Part shown: positions 1,682-20,582 of the stretch, piece after piece
How the letters are laid out: each line of letters opens with the position of its first letter
How positions within the stretch are numbered: the stretch's first letter is position 1
From: an uncultured Chloroflexia bacterium
GTDB lineage: Bacteria > Chloroflexota > Anaerolineae > B4-G1 > SLSP01
Direction: 5' to 3'
Assembly (NCBI GenBank): GCA_963751345.1
Contig: CAVVUS010000030.1
Coordinates: 64,001 to 128,000 of the forward strand
DNA length: 64,000 bases
Translations under genes and position numbers: made by a program
The notes under the pieces: model-generated
Seen by the model: the letters and a program-made list of their open reading frames with translations, nothing else
Told to the model about the DNA's origin: nothing
Database searches by the model: none

Positions 1682-2847
1682 GCTTGGGGATTTGGATTGC
1701 CGTCGCGCTCAGAGCTGTGCATCCATGGCCGCAGATATAGGGTCGCCTCGGGGCCGTGCGGCCCATTCGTCTGCGAACGCCCGTTCGTCTGCGAACGCCC
1801 GTTCGTCTGCGAACGCTCGATCGTGCGCGTGAACAGGCTGTGCATGCGTAGGTGTCCGGTGGTTGGGGCAGCGACCGCGTCGGCAGCTTGCCAGTCCGGC
1901 AAGAGCACGTCGGCTACGGCGCGAAAGGGAGCACTGTCCCAGCCCAGCGACTCGATCCAGACTGCCACCCTATGGGCCGTCTCCTGAGGCGTGAGCATCG
2001 GCGGGGGAAAAGCCGCGGTAACGGTCAGTTCGCGCACGAGCGCCGCTGGCGGGATCCAGGCGCAGCGCGATGCCGGATCTGCTCTTGGCAGCCAGCGATT
2101 CGCGCAGGATGCCGGGAATCTCAGGGACCACTGCTTCGGGATCGGCGGGGAGACCCAGGGCGGCGAGCAGCTCGCCCACAAAGGCGCGGCGCCAGCCGTG
2201 GAGTTCATAGTAGAGCTTACAGGCTATCCGACCGTCCTTCCCCAGGCCGAAGCCTAACTCCTGTGGGAAGCCAACCGCGTCCAGCCGATCGAGAGCGGCC
2301 CGCGACCAGCGGCCCCAGGCTGGAGCGGGATACCCGCGGCTGCCAACGCCGCTTCGAGACGAGCGCGCCCACCCCCACCCAGCTCGGTATCCATCAAATT
2401 CAGGTATATCTTGAGTATGGGCTGCATCGGGGCCTGATCGGTTCCAGGGGCAACGTCCAGCCCGCCCCACACCCAGAAGCGGGTCGTCTCCGGCACGGGC
2501 AGATCGGGGGAAACCAACTGGCTTATCCCGGGCATGATCCGGTCATAGGCCTGGGCGTAGCCCAGTTCCTGCGCCAGCTCGGCCAGGCTCTCCAGAGCCG
2601 AGAGTGCCCGAGGGTAGGGCGGCAGATACGGGTCGCCCACCTCAGCGGCACAGCGCAGCGCCGGGCTGGCGGAAGGACCAACATTGACCGAGAACTCCAA
2701 CGGTAGCCCACCTGCCAGTGTCGAGAGCTGTGCGGAGGGAAAGGGGCACGGCGCAGCCAGGCTGCGTGCTGTCAGACGGTCGACCAGGTGCTGCGCCTCA
2801 TGAGCGGCCGGGGGCGAAATCCGACTGCCAGACGCCACACCTTGCAC
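1678..2847 (-). CDS. Putative ABBA/DMATS-like aromatic prenyltransferase domain (split over three frames; possibly the C-terminal half of a fusion with 2926-3966)
   Basis: Joining ORFs 2254-2847, 1970-2470 and 1678-2208 gives PLEFSV, LKIYL, CKLYY and terminal TLYLRP. These resemble the P-x-EFS / K-x-Y / K-x-Y / Y-x-x-P pattern of tryptophan dimethylallyltransferase-like enzymes. Confidence 0.5.
1761..1814. repeat. 3 x 18-bp tandem repeat (GCCCGTTCGTCTGCGAAC), in frame, encoding RSQTNG x3
   Basis: Directly visible. Units contain the inverted repeat GTTCG-N4-CGAAC (first unit has one mismatch); no spacers. Confidence 0.95.
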
Positions 2848-2925
2848 CAGATTCGCGCCAGGCCAGAGGACACAAATGCTGCGGTATGCCCCCCGGCGTG
2901 AACCTCCATAAGTGTCTGGACGAAT

Positions 2926-3966
2926 CTACCGGGTCTGTAGAGCAGACGGCGAGATCGGTCGCCAGAGGCTTTCGTCCCGCGCAGGATGCCGATTGGGGGA
3001 CAGCAACGCTCCCTCAACCATCCCGGCGTGCAGAGCCAATGCGCGGAGGGCGCTGGACGTCGCAAACAGCCGCCTGGCGTCTGTGGCCTGCAGGTCGTCG
3101 AGCCCGCGCGCCCCCGGATGAGAAGGGGGAACCCGCAGCACCGGTGCAGAGGGCCAGCCGCCGTCGCTATCCTGGCGAGAGAGCAGGCGGCGCGCCAGGC
3201 GGTGGACAGCCTGCTCATCGCCCAGCAAGGCATAGGCGTGCAGGGCCCAGGCCTCGTCAAATGCGGTCAGCGGCATCCGGCGCAGCCGCACCGGGCGAGC
3301 CAGTAAGGGGGAACCGGACTGCGCCCGAGCTTCCAGCGCCATTCCGGTAGCGTAAGCAGGAGAGGTCCACCAATATCCATCCCAGCCACCATCCAGCCTC
3401 TGGGCCGGGACCAGCAGATGGGCCCACTCTGCCGCCAGCTCAGCACGGGAGAGGCGCCCCAGATCGAACAACGCCCTGAGCGCGGCAGCGGTTACGCCGG
3501 CGTGTGGCTGCGCCCACGGGTTCTCCGGGTCGGAGAAGGTGTAGGTGCGGAAGCCGCCGGGTGCAGCATCCACATCGCTCCAGGTGCGGCAGCTCAACAA
3601 GAATGCAATCGCCTCGGCCGGTGCAGGCAGCCCCAGCCGAGCCAGCAGGGAAAGACTGTGGGCGGTCGAGTCGGCATCCGGCGCCACCTGGCTGTTATAT
3701 CCCCAGCCGCCGTGTGGACGCGGCTGGGCCAGCAGCCAAGCTGCAGCGCGCTGTGCTGCAGACAATGCCTCTTGCCGGACCTGCGGATCGAGCACAGGGC
3801 TTCCCGAGGCGGCATGCATCCCCAGGCCAACGAAGGCGGTCGCCCAGGCATCCGAAGTGCCCACCGGAAGCCAGAAGTCAGTCCAGGCGCCAGAGGACGC
3901 CTGCAAGCGCAGCAGATAAGCAATGGCCGCCGTCAGACGGCGGCCAAGTTCCCGATCAGCTCCCAT
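2926..3966 (-). CDS. Prenyltransferase/squalene-hopene cyclase-like QW-repeat (alpha/alpha barrel) protein
   Basis: QW-type repeats YLLRLQASSGAW, WLLAQPRPHGGW, AQRLDGGW, LLSRQDSDGGW, and a DADST motif resembling the class II DxDD motif. Confidence 0.75.
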   Translation of the reverse strand: MGADRELGRRLTAAIAYLLRLQASSGAWTDFWLPVGTSDAWATAFVGLGMHAASGSPVLDPQVRQEALSAAQRAAAWLLAQPRPHGGWGYNSQVAPDADSTAHSLSLLARLGLPAPAEAIAFLLSCRTWSDVDAAPGGFRTYTFSDPENPWAQPHAGVTAAALRALFDLGRLSRAELAAEWAHLLVPAQRLDGGWDGYWWTSPAYATGMALEARAQSGSPLLARPVRLRRMPLTAFDEAWALHAYALLGDEQAVHRLARRLLSRQDSDGGWPSAPVLRVPPSHPGARGLDDLQATDARRLFATSSALRALALHAGMVEGALLSPNRHPARDESLWRPISPSALQTR

Positions 3967-3983: not shown

Positions 3984-6255
3984 CTAGTCAGACTCCGGGG
4001 GATTAGGGAAGACGAATACGTTGGTCCCCTCGCCGTCTTTCTCGTCACTCCACTGGCCTTCGTGATCGAAGTACACGTTCTGGACCTGATACTTGAAGGT
4101 TGCCAGGGCGCCGGCCTGCTCCCCCAGGATTTCCTTCAGATTGCGCTGCAAGGTCACCTGAGCGGATGCTGCTATCCTTGCCCAACACCACTTGCTCGGC
4201 GGCAAAGCCCGCGCGCAGGAGCTTCACCTTCAGGCGAAACAGGTTGGCGAATTTGTCGGGTAGAGTAGCCTGCTCAAAGACTGGGCACTCAACGGTTACC
4301 TTCTGGGCCAGGCTGGTGTTGGGGAAGATCTCGTGAACGCGGTCGAGCACCCGGCTTGGAGTTTCGGTGAGGTTCTGCCCTGCCAGTTCGGCCTGAATGG
4401 CATTCCACACCTGGGAGGCGTCTTCGCTGCCCGAGGAGCTGGCGGATTTCGGTTCCAGATCAACCGTCAAGGTGCCTTGGGCCGCCAATGTGGCGGGGAA
4501 GTCCGGTGCGACAGCTTCGGCTTCGTACACCTCCAGTGGCGTGACCGAGTTTGTATCGTACTGGAGTAGGCGCGGCAGACAGCCGCCCAGGCTGACCTCC
4601 AGTGGGGCCAGGTTAGTGATCTCTACCTGCCGGGGCGAGAGTGAGTCGGGAGGCAGATGCACTTCCAGCGGTAATCCGGCAAGGTCGTCAAACGTCAGGC
4701 GTACGGGCACGCGCCGCTCCAACACCTGTTCCGTCCCGCCTTCGCTAGCAGGTGGGCGGGTTTCCAGGCGCACCTTCACCTCTCCGGTCAGGCCGGGAGA
4801 GTTCTCACGCGTCAGCAACTCCGCCAGGAATCGGTAGAATTCCAGGCTCAGATCGAGCGTGACCTGGAAGCCGTTCTCCAGGCTGATCGCCACCTCTTCC
4901 CCATCCAAGGCCTGAATCTGCTCGGGGAAAGCACTGGTCAAGCGCAGGCTTGCGCTTTCATAGCCACCCGTCACCACGCTAGGAGATGCCAGGGCGCCGC
5001 CGGTCGACACCCGCAGGAAGTCGCGCAGCCGCACCAGTTGGACCGGATCGTGCCAGGGCATCGCGCCCAGGGTCACGCGGACGCGCACTTCGTCCTGGTC
5101 GCTGCGGTACAGGAACGGGATCAGATAGGGGGTCCCCATCTCGACGTGGAATGCCAGCCGTATCTCGTCCGGCAGGCGATAGACCGTGTTCGGGAAGTCC
5201 GCCGTGCGCACCAATCCGAAACCCGAATCTGTCCAATGCTCGGTGATGCCGGAGGTGCCCAGGAGCGCGGCGTAGATCGGCCGGTTGGCCTGCAAGTCAG
5301 AATCGAAGGTGAACGGCAGCCGGCGGTCAAGGCTGGCGGTATGGAAGTTGGGTTGGGTTCGGCGTTTGCGTTCCGCGTCGACGACCATCTTGAGCCGGTC
5401 GGCCATCAGCAAGGTGGCGAATCTGTTCCTGGGCACAGCAGCCCCGCCGGCGCCGGCGAACGTCGCGATGAGGTGCGGTGAAAGGGTGTGAGATGCTGCT
5501 GCCGGGTGGCCGGAGGACGGCTGTGCCCCGGCGGTGTGCAATAGAGTAGCCGCAAGATGGGCCTCGTGAGCGGCGATAACAGGGCCATGGTGTATGACCG
5601 GGCCGACGACACCTCCCGAACCCGTGTGGCCACCGCCCGACTGCGGATCGTCGGTCCAGTAACCGAACGACAGGACCACCTGCAGGGACGCGGCGGAGTC
5701 TGCCCGGCTGAGGGCCTGGAAAAGCGGCTCGACCTCGCCCGAATCCAACTCACTCCCCACACGAATGACGAAGTTGGACTGCGTGCTGTCCTCCGGGTTG
5801 TCCGTGCCCATAAGGGTAGGCTGATCAAAGACGCGCTGGTGGTCTTGGCCCTGTGCGTCGCGCCAATGCAGGGTGACGGAGTCGACCCGCACGTTGAACG
5901 GTTCGGCATCCGCCGGTAGCCCTGGAAGAGGGGACTCTTCCAGGCTGAACTGCAGGCGCACGTTTCCATCCGCGTCCTTGAGGAAGCGCACGTCGGGGCC
6001 GGGGAGGTCGCCGGGGCGCCGGCTAATACTCAGTAACGGGCGGTAGTAAAGATGGCCATCCTTCGCAGTGTAGGCGCGCCCATCTTGGAGTGGCTGCTGA
6101 GATGGATCGAAGTGCGGAGCGTTCTCATCTCCGGCGATCCCCGCAATGTAACGCATCTTGGCAAAGGGCATGCCCACCGCCAGCCTGGGTTCCACGGCAG
6201 TGGTCGTGACTGCGGCGGGCAGTGCATTGATCTTCAGAGTGTTCTTTTCAGGCAT
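3984..6255 (-). CDS. Hypothetical protein, divergent member (H) of the paralog cluster; frameshift near 4150
   Basis: ORF 4045-6288 plus C-terminal piece 3984-4205; ATG at 6255 with a GGAG RBS. TVYRLPDEIRLAFHVEMGTPYLIPFLY resembles the family motif; His/Gly-rich linker. Confidence 0.75.
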
Positions 6256-6309: not shown

Positions 6310-8577
6310 CTACTGCACCACCAGCACCGGTTCCTCAGTCGGCTGCCAATCCTCTTCGCGGTTATCAGCAGGGTCTTGTGCGATTAGCCGCAAGCGGTAC
6401 TGATAACCTTTCTTGGATGCGTCACGCAACAGCACCTTCCAGGACTGATCGGCTGAGTTCACCTCGTTGAAGGTGAAGTTCTTGGTCTGGTGAACGTCGT
6501 TGGCGTCATCGTCGTACTTGAGCATCACGATGGCGATCTTGTACTTGCTCCAATCCACCAGGCTGGCGATAACCGTGACCTCCAGGGCGTCCACCGCTCC
6601 CACGCCAACCGGGATGGTCTCGTCCAACTTACCTTTCTGGGCGGGCTTCTCCTGCCGCGAGCCGTTCGTGAAGACGATGATCACGTCATACTCGAAATCG
6701 AGGCTGTTCGGATCGCGAAGGCCTAGGGTCCAGGCGCTGGTATCGCCGTTCTTGATCAGTTCCGCGTGGAACGTCCCGGTGAGGTCATTCGCGGCGTCCG
6801 TATAGCGCGCATCCACGATAATCTTGTCGACCACGGCGAAATCGGCTTGGGCCAGAAAGCGGGTCGTGGTAGTGCGCTCGAACGGGTCAGGGATGGTCAG
6901 GATCTCAGCCTGGCTGCTCTGTTCGGGCGTATCCATCTTCTGTCCATCTGCCAGTACGTACGTAAGCTGATAGCGGTAGGGATCCGGCTCGCCGGTTTTC
7001 CCGGTGTAGATGAAGTACGTAGCGGTCGGCTTCTCACGCGTCAATTCGAACTGCTGTTGGGCACCGGGCGTCGTGATGCCGGGATAGCGGATATTAGCAT
7101 TGACTGACGTCACATTGTCTGGTAGGGCGCCCAGGGTCAGGTTGACCTTGACAAACCCCAGGCGCCGATAAGAGATCACCAATTGACGCTCGCTCGACTC
7201 CAACGCCCCACTGGAGGGAATGCGAATGCTCTGACCGGTATCCTTGTAGGTTAGCTCGCTCCAGTAGTGATAGCTGTCCTTGGGAGCGCCGTCACTGCCT
7301 TTCGCCATGATCACCCGCCAGCGCCCAATCTGGTCAGACTGTCTGAAGAGGAAATCCTTGGCACGCTTGATGTGCTCGTTGCGGATCTCATCCTGTTGGT
7401 CGTAATCCAATGAAACCTTGAGGGCGAAGACCGGGTCGTCGGTGAAGTTGACGTTGGGGTAGACGGTGACGTCCAGCTCCTGGAAGAAGGTCTGGCTGAG
7501 ATCCACATAGACGGTGTTAGCCTTGATTTCCTCTGGCGTAAGCGCCTGGAACAGCAAAGCGTTGGGGTTGCAGACCTTTTTCACCAGCTGTGAACGCGTG
7601 ATGGTCATATCGATGTGCCCGGTGAGCGACTCGTGCACCGGGATCATGGCATGGGGATCCTTGATCTCCTTGGCAACGTCCTCGAAGGCCTTTTCGAAGA
7701 ACGCCGGCAGGATGTTGGTCTGCACGATCTGGAAGGCCATATCCTGAAGTTTGTCGTTCATCTCGCTGCGTTCATCGCCGGGCAGGGAGGTGTCGTCGAC
7801 ATCGATCGTCAGGTTGTGAAACTCATTGCGGAAGCGGCTGATGCTCGACAGTTCATTCCATTCCACCGTCCAACTACGTTCGGTCCAGGTAATGCCCAGG
7901 AACGTATCACGCTCGACGTGTGTCCAGCGGTGGCGAACATAGTTCTTGACCTCATCGTAGAACGCGCCGCGATCGCCGTGAATACGAATGGTAATCGCCG
8001 GGATCTTGGCGGCGAACGACAGGTTGTACCATACACCGGAGGGGTTCTTGCCCTTTTCCACCGACTGGCGGAACAGCTCGGCACCGTCCTGGTTCAGGTT
8101 GGCCGTAAAGCTGGCGACATTGGTACCGATGAGCGACGGCACACTCGAACCGGCAGACTGGATGACCATATCGTCGGGCACCACCCGGAACTCCACTTTG
8201 CCGTCCAACCAGAGCGGCGGATACCCCAGCTCCGGCTCTGTGTTAGTGACCCGGTTGCGCAGGAAGAAAAAGCCGCGATTGCGCTCTTCCGCCAGCTTCT
8301 GGCGCAGGAAGTCACGGATCTTATCCTCGGCATCCTTGGTGACCGCTGCCTGGGTCGTCATCGCCACATAGCCGCGCTCGACCTCAAGCTGGTCGGGCGG
8401 CAGGGTGTCGGCATTGCGGGCGTAGAGAATGAACAGGAAGATCGGCTGGTTCTCATCGTCGCGGGCCACCGTGGCGCGCTCTGAAACCATGTAGAAGCGG
8501 TGAGGTACGTCATCATCGCGGTAGATCTTGACGTTCGGAACCGTCGGGACGTCAAACGAATCATAGAGAGTGAGCAT
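6310..8577 (-). CDS. Uncharacterised paralog G (755 aa): conserved core plus beta-sandwich-like repeats
   Basis: Intact ORF with an AGGAG RBS. Motifs IYRDDDVPHRFY, VPSLIGTNVASF...DGAELF and repeated Y-x-Y...DG modules. Confidence 0.85.
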   Translation of the reverse strand: MLTLYDSFDVPTVPNVKIYRDDDVPHRFYMVSERATVARDDENQPIFLFILYARNADTLPPDQLEVERGYVAMTTQAAVTKDAEDKIRDFLRQKLAEERNRGFFFLRNRVTNTEPELGYPPLWLDGKVEFRVVPDDMVIQSAGSSVPSLIGTNVASFTANLNQDGAELFRQSVEKGKNPSGVWYNLSFAAKIPAITIRIHGDRGAFYDEVKNYVRHRWTHVERDTFLGITWTERSWTVEWNELSSISRFRNEFHNLTIDVDDTSLPGDERSEMNDKLQDMAFQIVQTNILPAFFEKAFEDVAKEIKDPHAMIPVHESLTGHIDMTITRSQLVKKVCNPNALLFQALTPEEIKANTVYVDLSQTFFQELDVTVYPNVNFTDDPVFALKVSLDYDQQDEIRNEHIKRAKDFLFRQSDQIGRWRVIMAKGSDGAPKDSYHYWSELTYKDTGQSIRIPSSGALESSERQLVISYRRLGFVKVNLTLGALPDNVTSVNANIRYPGITTPGAQQQFELTREKPTATYFIYTGKTGEPDPYRYQLTYVLADGQKMDTPEQSSQAEILTIPDPFERTTTTRFLAQADFAVVDKIIVDARYTDAANDLTGTFHAELIKNGDTSAWTLGLRDPNSLDFEYDVIIVFTNGSRQEKPAQKGKLDETIPVGVGAVDALEVTVIASLVDWSKYKIAIVMLKYDDDANDVHQTKNFTFNEVNSADQSWKVLLRDASKKGYQYRLRLIAQDPADNREEDWQPTEEPVLVVQ

Positions 8578-8648
8578 TGACTATCTCTCCTTATCGGCGA
8601 ACTCTTCGACTACGCTAACTGCGATCGCATCGTTTGCCTGCCCATCCC

Positions 8649-9363
8649 TCACAGTACGATCTCCTCGACCCCGGAACGCAGTTCGCCTGCTGTAAGGCCT
8701 AACGGGCCTTGCGCCTCAACGGGAAAAGGGATCGCTTGGGTGAAGGAAGCATCATAGGTACTTTGAACACTGTAAATGCTGCTGCTGCCGGCGGCGCTAT
8801 CATCGTCGAAGACCTCGGTCGTGCCCGTATACCGCTCTTGGCGGGCGGCCTCGGTCTGCAGGTCGTAGCGGATGGTTGCATCGGGCAGCCCCTCTTTCCA
8901 CAGGTGCTGAAGCTGCCGAGCCTGCTCGGCGTCCAGAGACAAACTCAGGGCCGCTTCATTGCGCGCCCAACAAGGAGGGCTCACCACGCAATTCCAGGTC
9001 GGCGCCGAGGCGAACGATCACCGCGCCGCTCGTCCATGCCGGAGCAACCAGGTCGATCGTTACCGGCGCGCCAGGCGATAGCTTCTCTTCCTGGCGCCGG
9101 AGGGCCTGCAGGCGCCGGCGCAGCAGGTCGGCCTCATCGGCACTCAGCGCGAAGCTGGTCGCCAGATTCAAGTAACCGCCGGAAAGCTGAAAACCACCGG
9201 CGGTCTTTCTGCCATACAGCAGCAGAGAGATGATAGGACCACCGTCAGGATCGCGTGCCAAGCGCGGGGCAGACGGGTAGGCGTAGAAACGCTGCGGCTG
9301 CCGGTCATCCCGGTAGACCGTCACGTCCGGTAGAACGGAAACTGGCTGAGCAGGATCGAGCAT
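8649..9363 (-). CDS. Short core-only paralog F (~238 aa; frameshift near 8960)
   Basis: ORFs 8956-9363 and 8649-8987 join at GEPSLLG/NEAALSLSL. Motifs VYRDDRQPQRFYAYPSAPRLARD and GGYLNL. Confidence 0.8.
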
Positions 9364-9403
9364 CAGGCCTCCGTTACGTCAACACCAGAATTCGGTTCGC
9401 AAC

Positions 9404-11083
9404 TCAGCTCGATCCACCGCCGCCCCCACCATCGGAACCGCCACCACCGCCAGAAGTCCCCCCTCCCCCCCCGGAGATCGAGGTAGAGCCGCTCATACTC
9501 ATCACCGCCTTCACCAGGTCTTCACCCCACACCTGGGTAGAGTCGATGTCCAACAACTCATCCAGTTGGAGATGATCGTCGCTGGTCAGCGAGGTCTCCC
9601 GGAAGAAGCTGCCGGCTGGGAAGATGGGTGCTTGCCAGAAGAGCAGCGGGTTGGTGGCCCCCGAGCCTTGCATCGGGATGGCAAACCAGCGGGCGATGAA
9701 CGCGCTTAAGCTGAGTGGGCCAGGCGACTGCAGATGGAAGTTCCATAGCTCCGTGCGGTACGCCGCCACTTCGGCGCCATCCTCGTCCATAAAGGCCACG
9801 GCGTGCTCGATATCGGTGTAGAGGCTGCGGCGCATCGCATTGGCCGAGCCAATCAGCGCCCATTGATCGTCGATGATGGTGCTCTTGGTGTGGATCAACC
9901 GCCCATTGCCGAAGACCTCAGCGGATCGGTCCAGAAACAACCCGACGCGAGCCGCCTGGGAGGCACTTAACCCGTTCAGCAGGACGGTGTTGACGCCCAC
10001 ATGGAAGGCCTTGGTCAGGGCCTGCGGGGAAGGGGCAGTCGGGTCGTCGGCGCCCGCCACCAGGATCACCTTCAACTCATTATTGGCCTTGATCGCCTGG
10101 TTGATCCAGCCAAAGATCTCCAGCGACGAGAAAGCCTGGTCCTCAATGTAGATATAGGTGCGAGCCGCCAGAATCGCGTGCTTCCACACCGCTTTGATCT
10201 CCTGGGCGCCGGAAGGCGCAAAGGAAAGGGGAGCGTTGCTGGGAATCGACATGCCGAGGCTGCTGCCGGAGTAGAATCGCATCTGGGGAAGAGTGCGCGC
10301 GCTCTGGACGTGCATGTGCCCACCACTGCTGGTCAGGGTGCGGGCAGGCAGGTCGGGCATCGACGTAGTGTGGCTATCGAGGGTGATCCGGGCACGGGTC
10401 GTGCGCGAGACTGCCGAGAGGCCCGGTGAGACCGGACGGCTGCGAACCTCGTTCCACATCGCGCGGAACAGGTCGAACAGCCCCTGAACGGCGGGGCCTG
10501 TCACCTGTGCCTGGACGTCATGCCAGAGGCGCTGCATGTGGCGGACCTTCTCCAGATCGATGCCCCCCGTGTACCCCTCGGCCCACGTCGTGCCGCCTAC
10601 GATGGACATCTTGGTGTGCACCGCACCGGCCGGATGGGCCAGGATGTTCAGCACAGCTTTGTTGCGCAGCGTCGCTTCGGCACGCAGCAAGTTGATGAAC
10701 GTCATCGTGTCGCCGTTGATATCCAGACCGAACAGGCCGGCGCCGGCGCTCTGCACACGTGGATTATTGAGCACCTCGGGCGCCATCACCCAGCCCAGGA
10801 CGCGCACATCCACCCCGGCGGCAGACTTGGCCTTGAGTAAATCGGCCAACAGGTTACTGCTGGTCGGGCCATCCAGCGAGAAGTCCGGCCCCAACCACCA
10901 CCCGGCGATATAGACGAAGGTCAGGTCAGATCGATTGAGAGCTGCCTTCAGGCGGTCGAAGTAGACCTTGTCGCCGGTCGAATTGTAGATGAGGTGATTG
11001 ACCCGGCTGTTGGTGAACGAAGCCACCGCCGGGGAGGTACCGGAGTACATATATCGAGCTTTCAGTTCGCTAAAAGTTGGCAT
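9404..11083 (-). CDS. Phospholipase D family protein (two HKD-type motifs)
   Basis: HTKMSIVG and HTKSTIIDD...IGSAN, plus YIAGW, GGIDL, WHDV...GPAV and YIYIEDQ, as in eukaryote-like/Tle5-type PLDs. No signal peptide; Gly/Ser tail. Confidence 0.9.
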   Translation of the reverse strand: MPTFSELKARYMYSGTSPAVASFTNSRVNHLIYNSTGDKVYFDRLKAALNRSDLTFVYIAGWWLGPDFSLDGPTSSNLLADLLKAKSAAGVDVRVLGWVMAPEVLNNPRVQSAGAGLFGLDINGDTMTFINLLRAEATLRNKAVLNILAHPAGAVHTKMSIVGGTTWAEGYTGGIDLEKVRHMQRLWHDVQAQVTGPAVQGLFDLFRAMWNEVRSRPVSPGLSAVSRTTRARITLDSHTTSMPDLPARTLTSSGGHMHVQSARTLPQMRFYSGSSLGMSIPSNAPLSFAPSGAQEIKAVWKHAILAARTYIYIEDQAFSSLEIFGWINQAIKANNELKVILVAGADDPTAPSPQALTKAFHVGVNTVLLNGLSASQAARVGLFLDRSAEVFGNGRLIHTKSTIIDDQWALIGSANAMRRSLYTDIEHAVAFMDEDGAEVAAYRTELWNFHLQSPGPLSLSAFIARWFAIPMQGSGATNPLLFWQAPIFPAGSFFRETSLTSDDHLQLDELLDIDSTQVWGEDLVKAVMSMSGSTSISGGGGGTSGGGGGSDGGGGGGSS

Positions 11084-11094
11084 ATGTCACCTTG

Positions 11095-13607
11095 TCAGAA
11101 CTGCGGCATGCGGAGAAGAAGATGGTCGCGAGTGTCTTCGGTAAACTCGGTGCTGTTCTCGCTTCCATCATCCATCATCACAGTAAGCTTCCATTGTGTA
11201 AGTGCGGGCCAGGGCATCCGGCAGGCGGATCTTCCACTCCTGGCGCTGGGTGGCCACATCGTCGCGGATCAGGATCGAGGTGCTCTGTTCGAAAAGCGGG
11301 TCGCCCTGTGGATCCTTGTACTCCAGGTCGACGACGAGGGCGCTGACGCCCATATCTGAGAGATCGGGGCCGATATACTCGACCACTACGTCTTTGACGC
11401 GCTCGGCTGGGATGCCGACCCGAACGTTAGCGGAGGGCGACTCTTTCCACGGGAACTCCTCCAGCCCGCCATCCTTGAACAAACGACGCTCGCGGAAGCT
11501 CAACACCGGGCGCGGCGTCGGCTGCGGCAGGCGAATCGAGAACCGCTCCGGTTTGAGCGCTTGCGTCAACTCCAGGCTGCGGCTATCGAGCAAGTTACTG
11601 TTCTGTTCTGTCTTCAGATCCACCAGCGCGCTCTGCAACTCACCCAGCGGGTCCTGGAGGATCACGTCGCCATCAAGACGGTTGGCCGGCGGCGCGCTGA
11701 CCACCACCACACTGCCGTCCAGGTTGGCGTCGGGGTCGGGCAGTGTCTGGGCGGGCAAGTCCTGCTGGGTGCCATCCGCGAAGAACAGGCTGGTCTCTAC
11801 GGTATAGGTGTCGGCAGGGTCTGCCAGGCGGATCGCGACGGTTTGGGCCGGGTCGCCGGGCTTGAGGTGCAAGGTCGCCGCATCGTCGACGCCATTGGCA
11901 GGGCTGACGTAATGCAAGCGCACGTCAGCCTGGCTCACGTCAGTCGGCAGGTTGGGCGCCGGCTGGACCGTCACGGAGCGGACACGCCCCAGCACGGACG
12001 GATGGACGCGCAGGCTGCGGTCCTCGGTGGTCACCCAATCGGTCTCCAAACGTGGCGCTTTGAGGCCGATGCCGAAGTCGGTGCGGTAGTCGGCAATCAG
12101 TTTGTACTCGTACGACTGGGTCAGGGCCTTGTCGACAAAGAAGGTGAAGTCAGCCTTATCGTCAGCGGAGCGCAGGATGGATTCGACGCTGTCCTTTGGC
12201 TTGGTGCCATCCGGGCGGGTGCCGTAACGCAGTTGGACGGTCATCTGGGTCAGGCCTTCTGCAGTGAAATCCACACCCGCAGCACTCACATCGATGTTGA
12301 TGCGCTGGAAGAAGGGGTGGTTCAGGTCAATCGCCTGGATATGGCGCCGCAGCTCTGCCGGACTGGCGAGGAATTGGATGAAGCTCTGCGGGGCAAAAGT
12401 CTGTTTCTGGGCGGTGACCTGGGTCAGGGAGTACGTGATCGTGCGCTGCTCTTCCTGGCGCAGTGATTTGAGGGCGTAAGCCGCCTGCGGACGGCCCAGG
12501 CGGTTCCACAGGTCCGTAGCGGTGTTGCCTCCGCCGGATGCCGGCTGACCGCCGGTGGGTTGGGTGCCGCTGGGCTGCGCCGTGCCCGAGCCGACCCGAC
12601 GCCGCCGTCTGCGCCCCTGCTTGGTTGCGATATACCTCGCTCAGCCCTGTGGCCACCGCGGGCGCGATACCTTGTCGCAGCGCGGCAAGGGCGGGCGGCT
12701 GTCCGGCTGAGGCCGCTGCATCGGAGGCGGAGAGCGTCGTTGGCTGCGTCTTCGGCTGCCCGGGGGTCAGCGCCGGATTGAACAGCGCCCCGGTTGCCAG
12801 GTCCTTCACCACCTGGTCGATGTGGTTCTGGCGCTCACGCACCGCCTCGGGGGTGGAAAGCTCCAGGGTTCGAGCTGTCTCGCGGATCTTGATCGACTGG
12901 TTACGCTTGAGCTGCTCCAGGATGTTATCCACCTCGGTCTTGAAGAACAAGGTATTCAGGCTGAAGCGGTTCTGCATATAGGTGTAGGCCGACTTGAAGT
13001 CGATGGTGATCTCCAAATCGTAAGCAGGCAGCAGGCCCACGTACTCAAGCTCGTAGATCACGCCCACCGGGCGAGCCGTGACCGAGCCGCTCAAAGCCCC
13101 CAGGAAGAAGGCTGCTCCCTCCTCGCTGAGTGAGAAGGAGAAGATAGCGCGATTGGCGGCGTCCAGGGAAGGCGTGCCCGCGCCGAGGATGTTCTGGATG
13201 AAGCGCGGCCCGCTCGCGACCACCGGCTGACCATCGGGCGTAGTCTCTGAAGCCACGCCCCCTTTGAGGGCATCGCTGTCCTCACCCAGGGCAATCACGC
13301 GCACGGTGCCCTTGGTCAGCGGCACTGAGGCCAGGGTAACGTTGTCGCCAAAACGCTCTTTTAGCTGACTTTCAATGCGATCCTTAAGGGTCCCAATGCC
13401 CGTCTCCACCGCCATGTTGAGGAAACCGCCGGAGAGGGTCGTCCCGGACGCGCCACCACGATTGTAGGTGAAAAGGTCGAAGAGCGGATCACCACCTTCA
13501 CGAGCGATGTGTGGCTGACCGGGGAGATAGTAGAACTGATCCGAGGCATCGGTGTCTTGAAAGACCGTGATGCCGAGAATTTCCATTCGAGATTCCAGAT
13601 TGAGCAT
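11095..13607 (-). CDS. Uncharacterised paralog D (~835 aa; frameshifts near 12530-12600 and 11195)
   Basis: ORFs 12327-13607 and 11168-12289, with a corrected C-terminus QWKLTVMMDDGSENSTEFTEDTRDHLLLRMPQF* ending at 11095. Motifs VFQDTDASDQFYYLP, GGFLNM, GTPSLDAANRAIF. Confidence 0.8.
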
Positions 13608-13640
13608 GCTCCCTCCTTCGGGAAACGAGCCCTCAATGAC

Positions 13641-15934
13641 CTACAGATTCACCACCTGCAGCACGAGCAGGGTGGTACTGGACTCTTTCCACTGCGATTC
13701 CTGCATCGTGCCGTCCTTATGGAAACTGATCGTCTGGTAACGATAGTGAAGCGGGACGGACGGCGGCAAGGTCAAGTCGACGGTGTCGCTCGTCGCCGTA
13801 CCATCAAAGAGAAGGTTGACCGCCTCGTCGGGATTCCCCGGCGGCAGGCCAGGGGCGACGGGTAGGAAACGCACCTGCACGCCGTCCAATCCTGCTGCTT
13901 CCAGGGCCGGGCCGAGAAGTTGCACCTTGACCCGTCCGACTTTGTGGGCCTCGGCACCGACGGTGATAGACGGTCCATCCTCGCTCTCCCAGTCGCCCTC
14001 GCTGACCATGCCCGGCTCCTGAACGGTGACCCGGTAACGCACGGTCTGCTTGTTGCGATCCAAGATGGGCCAGGTCAAACGGACCGCTGCAAAGGGAGGA
14101 TCGATGTGGACCATCCGGCGGCGGTGGTAATCGGCCTCCCGGTCATCGTACTCAATTTCGACGGTCAGGCCCTCGACCGTCGCGCCCGAAGGGATGACCG
14201 GCTTGATGGTCAGCTCGCGTTCGCCGGCAAATGGGGTATCCACTTCCAGCAGCCGCTCGCTTGAGCTGAGTGGCGGGGCGGTCCAGGTACCATCGTCGAA
14301 GGTAAATGTGTAGGTCGCGGTATAGGGATTGAGATCGGTAGTACGGGTGCGCACCAGCCAACGCGGCGGGGTGGCGGGCGGCTGGGAGGGCGTCAACCGG
14401 AAATGCTCCTTGGCACTGAACTTTGCCGTCCGGTGAGCTGTATGCCAGATCGACGTCCACCTGGCGAACGTCGGCGTGGATGCGCCCCAACTCGACCTCC
14501 ACCTCCAGCACGCCAAAGTCTGCTGACGGGTTGATCGCCAGCGACCGCCCTGTGCGCTGGAGAGGCGGAAGCTCGTAACGGAAGCTGTCGCTGTCGGCTT
14601 GATCACGGGTGAAATCATAGGCCAGGGCAAGGGTGTAAGCGAGGCTCTGACGCCCATTACGCTGAAATGCGACCACCTTATCACCGGTCGAGTCGGGACG
14701 GAAGAGCACCGACTGTGTCTCGGCTGCCCCATCGCCACCGTACACCAGGGTCGCTTCGATCTGCCGGATGCCCAGGGCCGTGAACTCCTCCTTGGGTGGT
14801 CCGCTGACCAGAACCTCCAGCAGCTCGAAGAACGGGCTGCCGAGCGAGACGTGATGGATATGTTCCTGCAGCTGGCTAGGGGAGAGCATAGCCGGCATAA
14901 ACCCCTGCGGCGCGTGCGTGCGCTCCTCCGGAGAGCGCTCACTGTAGTCGTAGGTAGCCTCCTTAAGCTCCTCCTGGCGCTTGAACTGCAGCGTAAGGTT
15001 GACGGGCGCCGTGCTGCCAACCGTACCTCTCGCCAGACCACTCAGGGCTGAGGCCAGGTTGGTGGCCTGGTTAGGCTGGGTAGGCGGCGTGGGACGGAAC
15101 AGGTTCTGGATGATATCCTCTTTGAACAGCGACATGGCGCGGTCCTCGGCCTTCTGAGCATCCTCGCCCACCGCCTGGCTGATCAGCTCGACCTCGACCG
15201 CGTGCTGCTCGCGCAAGTAATCCAGGCCGGCCTCGACCTCTGCCTTGACCCATTTGAACTGCAAGCCCAGGCTGCCGCCGAAATGGGTATAGATCCGTGA
15301 GAGGTCAGCGTGGACGCGGGCCTCGACAGAAGGACGCAGGCCGTAGTAGTTCAACTCGTAGACCACGCCCACCGGTGCGGCGCCATCGGCGTACAGGCCC
15401 TGCAGGAAAGCTGCCCCGTTCTGACTCAGGCTGAGCGAGAAAATCGAGCGCAGGTCGCCCAACAATGAGGGCGTGCCGCTGCCCAGGATGGCCTCCACGA
15501 AGGTCGGGCGATTGTTCAGCGGTGCATCCGACGCCGCACTCGCCGGATCGCCGGCAGGAGACTTGAACTGGTCGAGGGCCAGAACGCTGACCGTGCCCTT
15601 GTGATAAGGGAATGGGGAAGAGCTGGATCTGGTCTGACGAGAGGCCGGTGGCTCCCTGCAACCCATCCAGAACGGCGCTGCGCTGAGCGGGGCTTAGCGG
15701 ACACTCGGTCGCCATCGTCAAGAATCCGGCACCCAACTCGTCGGGGATGGTGGTGCCCGACAACACCGAATGCTTCAGGTCCACGGTGTAGGTCATCAGG
15801 TCGAAGATCGGTCGCCCGGCCTGGCGGGCGATGACAGGGTTAGGCGCGGCATAGAAGAACTGGGTCGGAACGGCGTGATCACGGAAGACCGCGATGCCGG
15901 AAAACGAATAGAAAGGAGGTTCGAGCGTTAACAT
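13641..15934 (-). CDS. Uncharacterised paralog C (~765 aa; frameshifts near 15615 and 14425)
   Basis: ORFs 15305-15934, 14152-15666 and 13641-15041 form one protein. Motifs VFRDHAVPTQFFY, GAGFLTM, GTPSLLGDLRSIF...NGAAFL. Confidence 0.8.
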
Positions 15935-15936
15935 CG

Positions 15937-18301
15937 TTATGTGCTCACTGTCTTCGTGTTCAGGTGCACGATGAGCAGATCCGCCTGAGTCTGGATAGCG
16001 GGCAGATCGGTGACAAAGCCGTTGTTGTCGACAAACGTGGCCGTGACCTGCACGGAACGGGCAGGTGGGTCGCCCAGCAGATACTCCCAGGTGAGCGGTT
16101 GGGCTTCCTGTCCGGGAGGAATCGAAAGCTGGGTGTCCTGACGCGGCGGCCCGCCGTCCGGATCCAAGACCTGTAGATGCAGCGTCGCCGCGTTGAGCTT
16201 ATTCTGCGCCAGGCTGCCACCCAACGTGCGCACGGTGACGCGGCGGCTGTCGACCAGCCGGCGGTCCAGCACCAGGCGGTCATCGTCGGTTTCGCGCCAC
16301 GAGCCCTCCATCAGCGACCCGTTGGTGAACAACAAAGTGAGACGGTAGGCCAGGGTGCGCGGTCCATGAGCGTCGATCGGATAATCGCGGCGCAAAAACG
16401 GCGTACTGCTATCCAAGTCGATCTGTTCTTCATAATGGATCCCGTGGGCTTCGTCGTCGTAGCGAAGCTGGACAAAGGCCACCGACAGATCGCTCCACGG
16501 CAGGCTGGTGAATAGGTTGAGCGTTCGTTTGACCGGCATCGGATCGGGCACCGACAACCATTTGTCCAGGTGCGGCTGCCAGGGGATGGTAATCGCACCA
16601 CCTGCCTGGGGCAGGCGGTGGTAGGTCAGACGGTATTCGCAAGGCTGCGGGCCCGAGCCAAAAGCGGCATAGCGCCAGCTGCCCTGCGACTGCTCCACCT
16701 TCAACTCCACCCGCCCGGTCTGCGGCCCGCTGCCCGCCTCTGTGTAACGCAGCTCAACCGTCACCGCAGGAAACTGTTCGAACGAAAACGTCGGCGCCAC
16801 GGCGACCGTCAACTCTTGCACCCAGTAGACGTCGCGCGGCTCAACGTACAGATCCGCTGCGTTGCTGTCATTCCAGTCGGACTGCAGGGCCGGATGCGGG
16901 CCAAACGGCCCTGCGGGATCGAACAAGATGGTCGGGCGAAAACGGTAGGGCCGGCGCAAATCGGCGGGCGCTTCGCCGAGCAGGTTGACCACGTAAGGAA
17001 GCCGCTGGGCAGCAGAACGGAAAACCAGCGTCTTCTGATCGTGGCCCGCGTTGCTGCTGTCCAGGCGCTCCAGCTCCACCTGGACTTGTGAGAGCCCGTC
17101 CGTCGCAAAACGATCCTCCACGCCCACCTGCACCTCCAGGCGGGGAAAGCCCTCCAGGTTCACCTGCGTCAGCAGGCGAGCGCGCCGGGCGGGCCAGTCA
17201 GGGCGAACCTGACCATGCTCGTCCACCCGATAGTGATTCAACATACCGCCCAACGTGCCCTGCGGGATGACCTGGTGAGTCTCAGCCACGGCTTCTTCCA
17301 TGCGGGCAGAGAGCAGGCGCAGCTCGGTCTCCTGCAGATCGCGCAGCCGGTATCCAACGCCCGGCAGCACGCTGCGCACCAGGCTCCACACCGTATCATC
17401 GATCACCTGTCCAATGGAGTTGGCAGTCGCCGCAGCAGGGTCCGCCTGCGGGGCGAAAAAGTGCTCCAGGGTCCACTCGACCAGTTGGTTGCGGGCACGC
17501 TCGGCGGCTGCCTGAGCGCCGGCACCGGTACCGAATACGTCGGTCTGCACTCGGATGCTCTGCTCCTGGAGGGTTTCCTGGACCAGGCGCTCGGCGTCGG
17601 CGGCCACGATCCACAGGTTGGCCTTGGCCTTATCCTGCAGCGAATGGTAGACCTTGCTCCAATCAGCCTGGACATTGATCTCATAGGAGGGCCGGAGTGC
17701 GGCGAACGTCAGACGATAGATAGCGATCAGGGGCAGATCGGGAGCCTCAAGGGCGCGCTCGACGAGCTCGGCAGCGGTTTCATCCAGCAACAACTGGAAG
17801 ACTGCGCGATTGTCACCACCCAGGGAAGGCCGCCCCGCCCCCAGGAAATGGATCTGGAAAGGGCCACTGCCCGCCCCCGCATCAGGGAGCTGAGGTTGGC
17901 TGGGCCCGGTCGATACACCGCCCTCCGATGTGCCTCCGGATGGAGCGCCGGACGTGCTCCCCAGGGCAATAAGCTCGACCGTGCCACTATCATAGAGGAC
18001 CGGGGCCAAATGCAGCGGGCCGGTGTTGCCTCCCAGGCGGCTGGCGAGCCTGCCCGCCAGATCAGCCAGAGTCGCTGTGGGCACGTCGAGCTCGGTGGTC
18101 AAGGTCAGCAGGCCGCCCGAGATCCTTTGGGCACCGGCGCCTCCCCCCAGGTACTGCACCAACGAAAACGACGGGCGCCCATCCTGCTCTTGCGCCAGGG
18201 AAGGCGCGGGCGGGAGAACGTAGTATTGGCGCGGATCGGCATGGTCGGGGCAGAAGAGTGTAGCCCTGGATCACGTGATAGGGCGGCGTTAGGGAGATCA
18301 T
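15937..18301 (-). CDS. Uncharacterised paralog B (~788 aa; +1 frameshift in the G run at 18247-18250)
   Basis: N-terminus MISLTPPYHVIQGYTLLP/DHADPRQYYVLPPAP joins ORF 15937-18162. Motif GRPSLGGDNRAVF. ATG lies 1 nt after the stop of the previous gene. Confidence 0.8.
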
Positions 18302-18302
18302 C

Positions 18303-20582
18303 TTAGTCCGGCTGTGTTGGCAGGAACAGGAAGTCGTTGATGGCGCTGATGTGTCCGGCCTGCGCTCGCGTCGAGGCGCCACCGCCGTCCGAGGCGCCCA
18401 GGCTGCGGTGCGTGCCGTCACTCATGATGTACTCGACGTTGTAGGAGTAGTCGTTCACATTGGCGTCTTGGCGGGCGATCGTCCAGGTCTGCGGGGTGGC
18501 ATCTTTGAAGACCAGGGCTTCACTGTCCACGAAATTGTGGGCTGCATCGCGGTACTCCAGACGCACGATCACGCGCTTGACCTTGGTGAAGTCGATGTCG
18601 GAGGGATCTACCGACATCGTCACTACCCCGCCGGGCGCATTGCCCACGACAAGTGCCTGGGCATCGGTGTCGCGCTCTTTCCAGTCATCCTGTTGGACAA
18701 CGGCGTTCTTCATCAAGAGCGTCTGTGCGTAACGGTAGTTGCGTCGCTTTGGGTTGCGAAGCGGGAAACGCCAGGCAAGGGGATTCTTGGCGGCTTCCGA
18801 GAAGCTCTTGGAGGTTGCCATACGGTAATCGCTATCCGGATCGTTATATTCCAGGTCGACCACCAGTTGAGCCACCTCTTGCCAATCAACAGCAGGGATG
18901 ATCGTCAGACCGAACGTCTCGTCAAAGGGCGAGTTGACGGTGACGAACTGCTTCTGCCCGTTGCTCGAGTCCTGCTGAATCCACTCACCGGTGGAACGGT
19001 GCAGGTCGCCGGCCTCATCGGTGAAGACGTACGTGGCACGATACTGGTAGGGTTGGTCCCACGGGGCGTAGATCACGCGACGATAATCCTTGGTCGGGTG
19101 ATCCTTATCAAGCAGCAGCGTCTCCGTGACATCGGGGACCTTGCGCTTGGGATCGGCGTAGCGCACCTCTACCTCGACGCTCTGCAGCTTATCCTCGAAA
19201 CTGGCAGCGGCGGCGGCGAAGTTGAGTTCGATCACGCCGGGATTGGGCACGTCGAGGGTCAGGTTGCGGACCATCGTATCGAAGCTCTGCAAGGTGGTCT
19301 GCAGCACCGGACCGGATTTGTAGTTGACCTCCAGGTCCACGTGATAGAAATCCTTGCCCACCTCCGCGAGGCGGGTCTTGAACTCCTTTGGATTCCGGTC
19401 GTCGGCGGTGAACATGACACTCTCACGCTTCGTCAGGCGGGTACCGTCGGGCCTGGTCTGGTCATAGCTCAGATGACCGACTACGCTGTGGATGATGTCG
19501 CCGTACTGCTCGAAATCCAGGTTGGTATCAACGGTGACCTCCAGTGTGTTGAAGTACCAGGGAGCGTTGCCCAGATCGATGTCCATCACCACCTGGTCCA
19601 GCGCCGCGCCGACGAAGTCAGGGTTCACCTGAGAGCTGGGATTGTACGGGCGGGGAACGACATCGCGGTACGAGACATTCAGGTCAAAGCGTTTCTGAAT
19701 GTCCTGTGAGAGGAATGACATCCACTGGCTCTCGCGGTCGGCAGCGGTCTCGATCGTGCCACCCTTGAGGAAATTGTTCTTGATGAAATCGTCCATTGCT
19801 CGGAAGGCAAAAGACTGGAGCGATTCCATATCGTCGGCGGTGAGCGATACGCTGCCCTTGAGGATGGTGAGTTGGATCAAGCCCTGAGATTCCATCGTTT
19901 CGGCTATGGAGGTGCGGTGCGCCACCTCGTGGCTTTCCTCGTTGCCCCAGGTATCATCGGAAGTGACCTTCTCACGGGTGTAGCCTATGACCGCGGTCTT
20001 GACTTCCTTTGAGTCGACGTGCCCAAGGATAGTGATCGCCGGCAGCCGTACGGGAAAGGTCAGAGAGTACTGAATGGCCCCAACACTGCCGCCGCCCCTG
20101 AGGGCCTCGCGGAAGAGCGTAGCGCCATCCTCGGGCAGCTCGACGGCGACCGAAGCGGTGTTGTCACCAAAGAGCGAGGGCTTGCCCAACGTGACCTCTT
20201 TGACGAAGCGCTGATCCTTGAACGTGATCAGCGATATCTCGCCATCGGTGAAATCCACCGGCGCCAGCGACACCTGTAGGGGCACAACCTCGGTGGGGTG
20301 CTCGGTGCGGTAGCGCGACTGCAACACGGTGCGGATCTGCTCTACCAACTGCGGGTCCTCTTTGAGCACCGTGGTGAAGGTCAGATAGCCGCCACCTTTT
20401 TCATTCGACGGGCCGGGACGGTCGACTGCGAACTGGTAATACAAGAAGGTGAACTGCGGTTTGCCGGAGGGATCCACCGCGATACGCGGTTGCCGCGGTA
20501 GGTAGTAAAAGCGGGTCGCGTCCTCATCGTCACTAAATATCGACAATCCCTGGATCGTGTCGAAGATCGGAATAGTGATCAT
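18303..20582 (-). CDS. Uncharacterised paralog A (759 aa), first gene of the operon
   Basis: Intact ORF with a GGAGG RBS. Motifs IFSDDEDATRFYYLPRQPRI, GGGYLTF, GKPSLFGDNTAS...DGATLF. Confidence 0.85.
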   Translation of the reverse strand: MITIPIFDTIQGLSIFSDDEDATRFYYLPRQPRIAVDPSGKPQFTFLYYQFAVDRPGPSNEKGGGYLTFTTVLKEDPQLVEQIRTVLQSRYRTEHPTEVVPLQVSLAPVDFTDGEISLITFKDQRFVKEVTLGKPSLFGDNTASVAVELPEDGATLFREALRGGGSVGAIQYSLTFPVRLPAITILGHVDSKEVKTAVIGYTREKVTSDDTWGNEESHEVAHRTSIAETMESQGLIQLTILKGSVSLTADDMESLQSFAFRAMDDFIKNNFLKGGTIETAADRESQWMSFLSQDIQKRFDLNVSYRDVVPRPYNPSSQVNPDFVGAALDQVVMDIDLGNAPWYFNTLEVTVDTNLDFEQYGDIIHSVVGHLSYDQTRPDGTRLTKRESVMFTADDRNPKEFKTRLAEVGKDFYHVDLEVNYKSGPVLQTTLQSFDTMVRNLTLDVPNPGVIELNFAAAAASFEDKLQSVEVEVRYADPKRKVPDVTETLLLDKDHPTKDYRRVIYAPWDQPYQYRATYVFTDEAGDLHRSTGEWIQQDSSNGQKQFVTVNSPFDETFGLTIIPAVDWQEVAQLVVDLEYNDPDSDYRMATSKSFSEAAKNPLAWRFPLRNPKRRNYRYAQTLLMKNAVVQQDDWKERDTDAQALVVGNAPGGVVTMSVDPSDIDFTKVKRVIVRLEYRDAAHNFVDSEALVFKDATPQTWTIARQDANVNDYSYNVEYIMSDGTHRSLGASDGGGASTRAQAGHISAINDFLFLPTQPD

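Follow-up and report, generated by a model that had tools for sequence, protein, structure and literature searches.

Operon layout and gene calls

The window (the whole stretch of 64,000 nucleotides that was analysed) carries on its minus strand an operon with the gene order A-B-C-D-PLD-E-G-H-J (Table 1). The middle part of H is weakly similar to the core sandwich of the paralogs described below (hhalign probability 19%, E 0.001).

Table 1. Genes of the operon and hairpins of the large subunits, with their positions in the window.
Feature	Position	Strand	Description
Paralog A	18303..20582	-	759 aa, intact; opens the operon; hairpin acidic, tipped by Trp-Gly
A hairpin	19923..19982	-	aa 201-220; both faces polar; Trp212 is the tip
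Paralog B	15937..18301	-	transmembrane-type hairpin; frame break at ~18250 (assembly)
B hairpin	17584..17640	-	faces alternate; aromatic turn
Paralog C	13641..15934	-	transmembrane-type hairpin; frame breaks at ~15610 and ~14425 (assembly)
C hairpin	15223..15285	-	clearest alternation of all hairpins
Paralog D	11168..13607	-	transmembrane-type hairpin; low-complexity insertion; frame breaks at ~12590 and ~11200 (position of 3' end approximate)
D hairpin	12918..12977	-	faces alternate; turn is Leu/Phe-Phe
PLD gene (Phospholipase D superfamily)	9404..11083	-	559 aa; HxKx4G (156) and HxKx4D (398); likely lytic cargo
Paralog E	8649..9363	-	~237 aa; core sandwich only, with long polar Ser/Thr-rich insertion; frame break at ~8960
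Paralog G	6310..8577	-	755 aa, intact; hairpin long, polar, hypervariable
G hairpin	7858..7935	-	aa 215-240; strands predicted at 215-226 and 229-241
H	3984..6255	-	~750 aa; conserved companion; frame break at ~4170
J	1678..3966	-	fusion of an MstE-like class II terpene cyclase with a DMATS/PriB-like prenyltransferase; frame broken at several sites (assembly)

Frame breaks affect B, C, D, E, H, and J in this assembly. Because the corresponding genes of relatives are intact, unrelated genes of the window likewise look split in the list of open reading frames, and short-read contigs of near-identical strains deviate from the assembly by a gap at seven of the break sites (the break at ~12590 and some of those in J are not among the sites reported), we consider that the frame breaks are probably assembly errors. 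Two further genes on the minus strand, labelled by eye as glycyl-radical-enzyme-like (24851-27086) and sugar-binding-protein-like (28501-30271), are each split into overlapping ORFs in a manner consistent with assembly indels. Divergent from the operon lies a fusion of a TPR domain with a DinG-family helicase (20970-23579, plus strand), which was otherwise found in the closest relative only. A scan for promoters and terminators gave results at chance level. One metatranscriptome has seven short contigs which match A and B; we take this as a weak hint and do not count it as evidence of expression.

Paralogous subunits and their predicted fold

A tblastn search within the genome revealed that A, B, C, D, and G are paralogs (E 1e-5 to 1e-43, all on one contig stretch), and a profile comparison covers 702 columns with a probability of 100. 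As the original prediction had stated, a strand-turn-strand segment is present in all five, in the minus-strand ORFs and as quoted, and it occupies the same place in each: the segments align at one homologous position, after a conserved P-x-x-strand and the helix named in the prediction.

AlphaFold2 was applied to G, which was interpreted in terms of secondary structure and confidence; the hairpins of B, C, D, and A were assigned by homology to G. The model of the complete protein has a mean pLDDT of 79 (59-67 in the hairpin block), and that of the first 364 residues (150 rows) has a mean pLDDT of 88 and a pTM of 0.76 (hairpin 74-91). The predicted structure consists of a beta-sandwich core with two long strands (181-202 and 321-336). 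Between these are a helix (203-214), a beta-hairpin (215-226/229-241), a helix (246-252), a strand (256-261), and a long helix (267-306), so that the predicted strand-turn-strand shape is modelled in G, the paralog that was folded, as a hairpin between two helices. Four Ig/FnIII-like domains are predicted to follow the N-domain. According to this model, G would have an Ig-like core, a two-strand stalk which bears a helix-hairpin-helix, and then four Ig-like domains. Going by the secondary structure predicted for G, the hairpins, including those of B, C, and D, may project. A complex prediction for two copies of C (residues 1-370 of the protein from relative L001) returned ipSAE values of 0.01 and 0.00, the mark being 0.42.

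Foldseek found nothing at E<=0.001 for the N-domain model of G, nor did a fold search against 48,161 chains yield a hit with Z>=8. All rows listed by the fold search are Ig-like, the best having Z 6.2, rmsd 3.1, and 93 aligned residues; MACPF, CDC, aerolysin, and gasdermin are not among the rows listed, but a relationship to these may still exist. A match of the complete G model to CDC domain 4 (Z 7) was treated as generic, the rows being filled by Ig/FnIII domains. One viral match was returned for the N-domain, the uncharacterised Medusavirus stheno protein A0A7S7YF07, which is weak (E 3e-5, TM-score 0.28). At the sequence level, the paralogs have no match in Pfam or NCBIfam, and sequence and profile searches against the PDB were empty or at chance level. 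An Atlas search returned only unnamed or 'Ig-like' clusters with low recognition score, and no named match for G 100-360. Judged by these searches, the family is one without a name, a Pfam model, or a solved relative in the libraries searched.

Several family members carry additional domains: proteins P0171, P0172, P0186, P0196, P0213, and P0294 have either a beta/gamma-crystallin domain within the stalk region or a peptidoglycan-binding domain at the C-terminus. Beta/gamma-crystallin inserts were found in 5 of the 49 relatives scanned.

Three classes of hairpins

Viewed by their sequences, the hairpins fall into three classes: alternating in B, C, and D, acidic in A, and polar and hypervariable in G. 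The hairpins of the first class are short (~9+2+9 residues). When their residues are read in a fixed register, which was picked by eye with C as the guide and then transferred to the others at a fixed offset, one face is apolar (mean hydropathy +1.5 to +2.4, 0-3% charged) and the opposite face is polar (-1.8 to -2.4, 35-57% charged). In column permutations, the alternation has p 6e-4 for B (21 of 22 sequences, one of other length being left out), p 2.5e-4 for C (21 of 23, two of other length being left out), and p 0.015 for D (19 of 19); for the 18 of 165 distant members which share the hairpin length, p is 5e-5. An aromatic residue is found at the turn in 21/21 B, 20/21 C, and 14/19 D sequences. 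A per-sequence test with free register is weak, as only 4 of the 64 B, C, and D sequences reach p<0.05 against their own shuffles. Ordinary Ig-domain hairpins of G served as a control, and with guessed turns one of seven reached p 0.047.

In the fixed register, B, C, and D have an amphipathic beta-hairpin that would be long enough to cross a bilayer, whereas A and G do not. Alternation is lacking in A (p 0.82) and in G (p 0.35 and 0.55), so these two would be unable to span a bilayer as such. Both faces of the A hairpin are polar and its net charge is -3; Trp is found at its tip in 96 of 98 sequences. The tip of G is hydrophobic in 47 of 71 sequences, and in the other 24 it is short and basic with no aromatic residue at the turn. 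The hairpins of A and G fit anchoring or recognition fingers. At the same position, distant members have longer Gly/Ala/Val-rich alternating hairpins, an amphipathic helix, or a single Cys.

The original prediction of a variable hairpin with an aromatic tip in every large paralog needs to be narrowed accordingly. Hypervariability applies to G, where the hairpin has 18% identity to the window copy compared to 43-56% elsewhere in the protein (55 homologs), but not to A (47% versus 50-60%, 90 homologs), and the aromatic tip is missing from the 24 G orthologs with a basic tip. The proposal that the hairpins insert into membranes is supported by the sequence pattern for B, C, and D, but not for A and G, so that a transmembrane appearance is confined to three of the five. 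Alternation would also be compatible with a hairpin that packs against a helix or a neighbour. The division into transmembrane-type and finger-type hairpins agrees with the suggestion that the subunits have different roles.

Distribution and conservation of gene order

When one genome per species was scanned, 22 loci were retrieved, which according to the record titles span Chloroflexota, Deinococcota, Cyanobacteria, Actinomycetota, Acidobacteriota, Bacillota, Armatimonadota, Deltaproteobacteria, and Eisenbacteria. The closest locus is labelled as Chloroflexia (93% identity in A). Gene A is followed by B in 21 of the 22 loci, and PLD follows D in 12 of 22; the other stretches end early, except for four actinobacterial loci that are devoid of PLD. 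Among the stretches of sufficient length, G is followed by H in 18/18 and H by J in 16/16, to which Paracoccus adds a further case (17/17 loci where this is visible). The full gene set is encoded on a Paracoccus plasmid.

Among close relatives of the window genome, the system is present in 2 of 40; it was found in 0 of 300 other genomes sampled from the window's phylum, and in 7/300, 1/250, and 2/250 genomes in samples from three other phyla. The occurrence is patchy and resembles that of conflict systems. The wider family comprises 2,127 representatives at 50% identity (E up to 0.001), which are distributed across many phyla. A phage origin of the operon was considered and dropped, as neither 50,697 phage records nor viral contigs contained a match. 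A contractile tail-sheath gene is encoded in the same genome (C11:313519-313944). It is located on a contig other than that of the operon, and no more than 13 of 28 carrier genomes have similar sheath genes, so that a contractile injection system is not obligatory for delivery.

The paralogs of a distant operon type (L059, L061-L064, L075, L076) all begin with signal-peptide-like N-termini and have a smaller number of Ig domains; a YdbH-like lipid-transport gene is located upstream in L061 and L063. A second operon type carries, at the place of PLD in the window type, a gene with Cys/His motifs (L024:28481-30247 and L060:7573-8466), which has no Pfam match and was suggested by eye to be a papain-like protease. 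In a cyanobacterial locus (L074:6488-16535), two distant family members precede genes for a subtilase of 1310 aa and for a protein of 580 aa with no assigned function.

PLD, lytic neighbours, and secretion

The PLD protein matches PF13091 (E 6e-11). Its first motif, HxKx4G, is present in 12 of 13 sequences, and the second, HxKx4D, is canonical; PLD, a putative lipase or nuclease, is a likely lytic cargo. In other loci, the paralogs are flanked by genes for a muramidase/lysozyme and a Tae4 amidase (L057), an alpha/beta hydrolase (L056), or, with a weak match, a PG-binding peptidase (L053), and subtilase genes are found beside paralogs in further loci.

Window-type proteins are devoid of a signal peptide as judged by N-terminal hydropathy. 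In five distant genomes, signal-peptide-like N-termini, called by eye and by hydropathy, immediately precede the residue which matches the first Met of the window proteins, and the N-terminal hydropathy peak is 2.1-2.8 in the five distant proteins tested versus 0.4-1.3 in window-type proteins. These N-termini suggest that the fold can act outside the cell.

On the Paracoccus plasmid, genes for a trypsin, EAD1, and an ATPase directly precede the operon (L023:3218-8105), and tyrosinase and trypsin genes are encoded after it (L023:26604-29070). A tyrosinase gene is also found after J in L046. In the available part of the relevant publication, EAD1-type neighbours are parts of conflict systems from multicellular bacteria, and the genes of our operon are not described alongside them (PMC7159879). 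When A, B, G, H, PLD, and J were compared to PADLOC defence models, no match was obtained at E 1e-4, and there were no recurring defence neighbours among the 87 proteins scanned. A defence-island context was thus rejected as not recurrent. An immunity gene was not identified for the operon.

The terpene-transfer enzyme J and its putative substrate

A profile built from 14 J proteins matches MstE (E 2e-34) and 8PAK/8PAJ (E 1e-41), which identifies an MstE-like monodomain class II cyclase in J; D-x-D-S-T-A is invariant in the 14 proteins. The profile also identifies an ABBA-type prenyltransferase domain (PriB, E 1.3e-5; DMATS, E 2-6e-5), in which the motifs P-x-E-x-S, R, and K-x-Y are invariant as well. 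The 3' part of J in the window has a short tandem repeat (1775-1822; R-S-Q-T-N-G three times) that is not found in distant J proteins. J was not found in or beside the other operon types.

The same pairing of an ABBA-type prenyltransferase with an MstE-like cyclase in one chain is known from NctPC, to which we liken J by domain pairing. According to the available text on that enzyme, a Trp of a ribosomal peptide is geranylgeranylated and the terpene is then cyclised (PMC13290415); prenylation of peptide Trp by ABBA enzymes is likewise confirmed in what is available of a second report (PMC12715784). J differs from NctPC in that it is encoded among genes for 750-residue proteins, among which a candidate substrate is proposed here by inference, whereas NctPC acts on a ribosomal peptide.

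Judged by sequence and context, the Trp212 at the hairpin tip of A may be the substrate of J, which would provide A with a lipid anchor. We consider this mainly because of a locus on plasmid AZO_p5 of Azospirillum lipoferum 4B (L073:11430-19234), where a Trp-tipped family member adjoins a prenyltransferase/cyclase pair. This single member (E 2e-84, D-T-W-G tip) is encoded after HBL/NHE-type genes (PF05791, E 2e-12) and before separate prenyltransferase-like and DxDD cyclase-like genes, all in one apparent operon with transposases on both sides. The matches of the two enzyme genes are weak (E ~2e-3) with concordant motifs, and as single sequences these have no PDB match.

It comes close to an even chance in our view that J instead has a small indole-terpenoid as its product or a short peptide as its substrate, with no lipidation of A. 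The closest solved relatives of J (MstE, PriB, and DMATS) are small-molecule enzymes, the substrates of NctPC are peptides in the available text (PMC13290415), and the tip Trp of A is not uniquely conserved: it is present in 86 of 91 rows, and eight other Trp residues of A are as conserved (77-87 of 91). Against this stand the position of J at the operon end in all 17 loci where this is visible, the enzyme pair after the lone Trp-tipped member in Azospirillum, and the fact that a limited scan of both ends of the operon in the window revealed no precursor-like short ORF.

A proposed mixed beta-pore and its alternatives

Starting from the paralogy, the single hairpin position, the three hairpin classes, the conserved gene order, and the domain content of J and PLD, we consider the operon to encode, with a probability of about one half, a hetero-oligomeric mixed beta-pore, which would work like the complement MAC or the CDCLs but with a different core. 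The five large homologous subunits and their companions would co-assemble on a membrane into a shared beta-barrel. J would prenylate the Trp at the hairpin tip of A and cyclise the terpene, thereby generating a lipid anchor. Lipid-anchored A together with G, the variable tip of which may confer recognition, would seed the assembly on the target membrane, and B, C, and D would then be added in order, their two-faced hairpins crossing the bilayer. PLD, or elsewhere a muramidase, amidase, peptidase, or hydrolase, would damage the target envelope. The target would probably be another bacterium, and the signal-less type found in the window could be released via lysis or via an unknown route. Ordered co-assembly is proposed by analogy with the complement MAC and the CDCLs. 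A role in membrane attack is favoured by the gene context, with its lytic enzymes, HBL-type neighbours, and signal-peptide-like N-termini in distant members. The mixed beta-pore is weakened by the poor result in free register, by the shortness of the B, C, and D hairpins, by the lack of a signal peptide in the window type and of an identified immunity gene, and by the incomplete presence of sheath genes among carriers; in addition, J is missing from the other operon types and PLD from four actinobacterial loci.

The apolar, uncharged faces and aromatic turns in three separate paralog classes, the amphipathic helices that other members have at this tip, and the terpene-transfer enzyme and HBL-type neighbours, which point to a membrane, make it unlikely that the proteins form a non-pore structure. 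This could be a filament, sheath, coat, or adhesive lattice, in which strand addition pairs the hairpins with neighbours and enzymes are displayed on the Ig domains. Such a structure would be consistent with an Ig-like sandwich core followed by four Ig-like domains, which resembles adhesins and S-layer proteins, with the polar hairpins of A, G, and E, and with the tyrosinase and protease genes after some operons.

We hold it to be equally unlikely that the complex resides in the envelope of its producer, as an enzyme-export channel or as a lysis or suicide pore triggered by infection, and is not a weapon. Signal peptides are missing from the window-type subunits, no immunity gene was seen, and the Paracoccus operon directly follows the trypsin, EAD1, and ATPase genes, which are conflict-system parts as far as the available text goes (PMC7159879). 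However, the EAD1 context is restricted to one locus, the PADLOC and neighbour scans described above gave neither matches nor recurring defence genes, and the operon is absent from the phage collections searched. It is highly improbable that the hairpins, instead of being barrel strands, enter the membrane only shallowly as fingers of a machine for tethering or fusion, as hydrophobic G tips on a polar stem and the amphipathic helix at that site in some members might suggest, since B, C, and D alternate along both strands and not just at the tip.

The mixed beta-pore can be extended, tentatively and with considerable doubt, to a class of membrane-attack complexes that would combine a terpene-anchored first subunit, ordered paralogs, and swappable lytic enzymes, which the pore would admit or assist. 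In this extended form, the lipidated subunit might be a portable anchor which also serves HBL-type pores, and five to seven paralogs would share an undescribed stalked Ig core, which is likewise a rather doubtful proposition at present. Of greater weight than the hairpins is the operon itself, which has no name, is scattered widely, comprises multiple subunits, and includes a terpene-transfer enzyme. If Trp terpene lipidation indeed occurs in a folded 750-residue protein, this would extend a chemistry that has been described for short ribosomal peptides. Both this idea and that of the pore are testable in cultured and non-pathogenic carriers (Deinococcus aquatilis, Paracoccus sp. SMMA_5, and Azospirillum lipoferum).

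Comparison with known systems

A literature search retrieved nothing on the operon or its proteins and nothing that links Trp terpene lipidation to a pore toxin; most subscription papers and supplements were outside the search, and a mention in a supplement is possible. The original prediction had likened the hairpins to those of beta pore-forming toxins, which is supported by the alternating faces of B, C, and D, but not by the fold, as no known beta-PFT fold was matched.

Aerolysin-type beta-pore toxins have a single alternating hairpin with long flanking strands. The paralogs resemble these by a single alternating hairpin between long strands, by the long Ser/Thr-rich insertion in E, and by the beta/gamma-crystallin inserts in 5/49 relatives. 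They differ by the lack of a Pfam or PDB-sequence match, by the absence of this type from the fold-search rows listed, and by being encoded in an operon for a putative hetero-oligomer.

The tripartite alpha-pore toxins HBL and NHE are paralog sets, the tips of which differ in length and hydrophobicity, and in Azospirillum a member of our family lies next to HBL-type genes. An assignment to the HBL/NHE/ClyA alpha-PFTs was rejected, as the G model is mostly beta with an all-beta core and PF05791 is matched neither by the paralogs nor in the window genome.

The MACPF signature motif, in what we take to be its pattern, occurs in none of 398 family sequences. The YGR motif, which is a feature of CDCs and CDCLs in the available part of PMC11169675, occurs anywhere in just 12 of the 398 and in no consensus. 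The N-domain model of G has one helix-hairpin-helix on a stalk, with only Ig-like folds in the fold-search rows. We thus did not assign the family to MACPF/CDC/CDCL, given these motif counts and one hairpin versus two bundles.

The resemblance to CDCLs and the complement MAC lies in the architecture of the system. In these, one subunit anchors and the others polymerise, as far as the accessible texts describe it (PMC11169675, PMC11952106). Several paralogous subunits, the roles of which would here too be divided between anchor and pore subunits, and hairpins which emerge between helices are common to both, and CDCLs are antibacterial (PMC11169675, available part). The differences are the lack of a sequence match, a single hairpin in each subunit where CDCLs and the MAC have two helical bundles, an Ig-like core on a stalk with four C-terminal Ig domains, and the five to seven different subunits of an operon which also encodes a prenyltransferase-cyclase and PLD. 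A pore of at least five different subunits on a new scaffold, if it exists, would be an independently arisen counterpart of the complement MAC.
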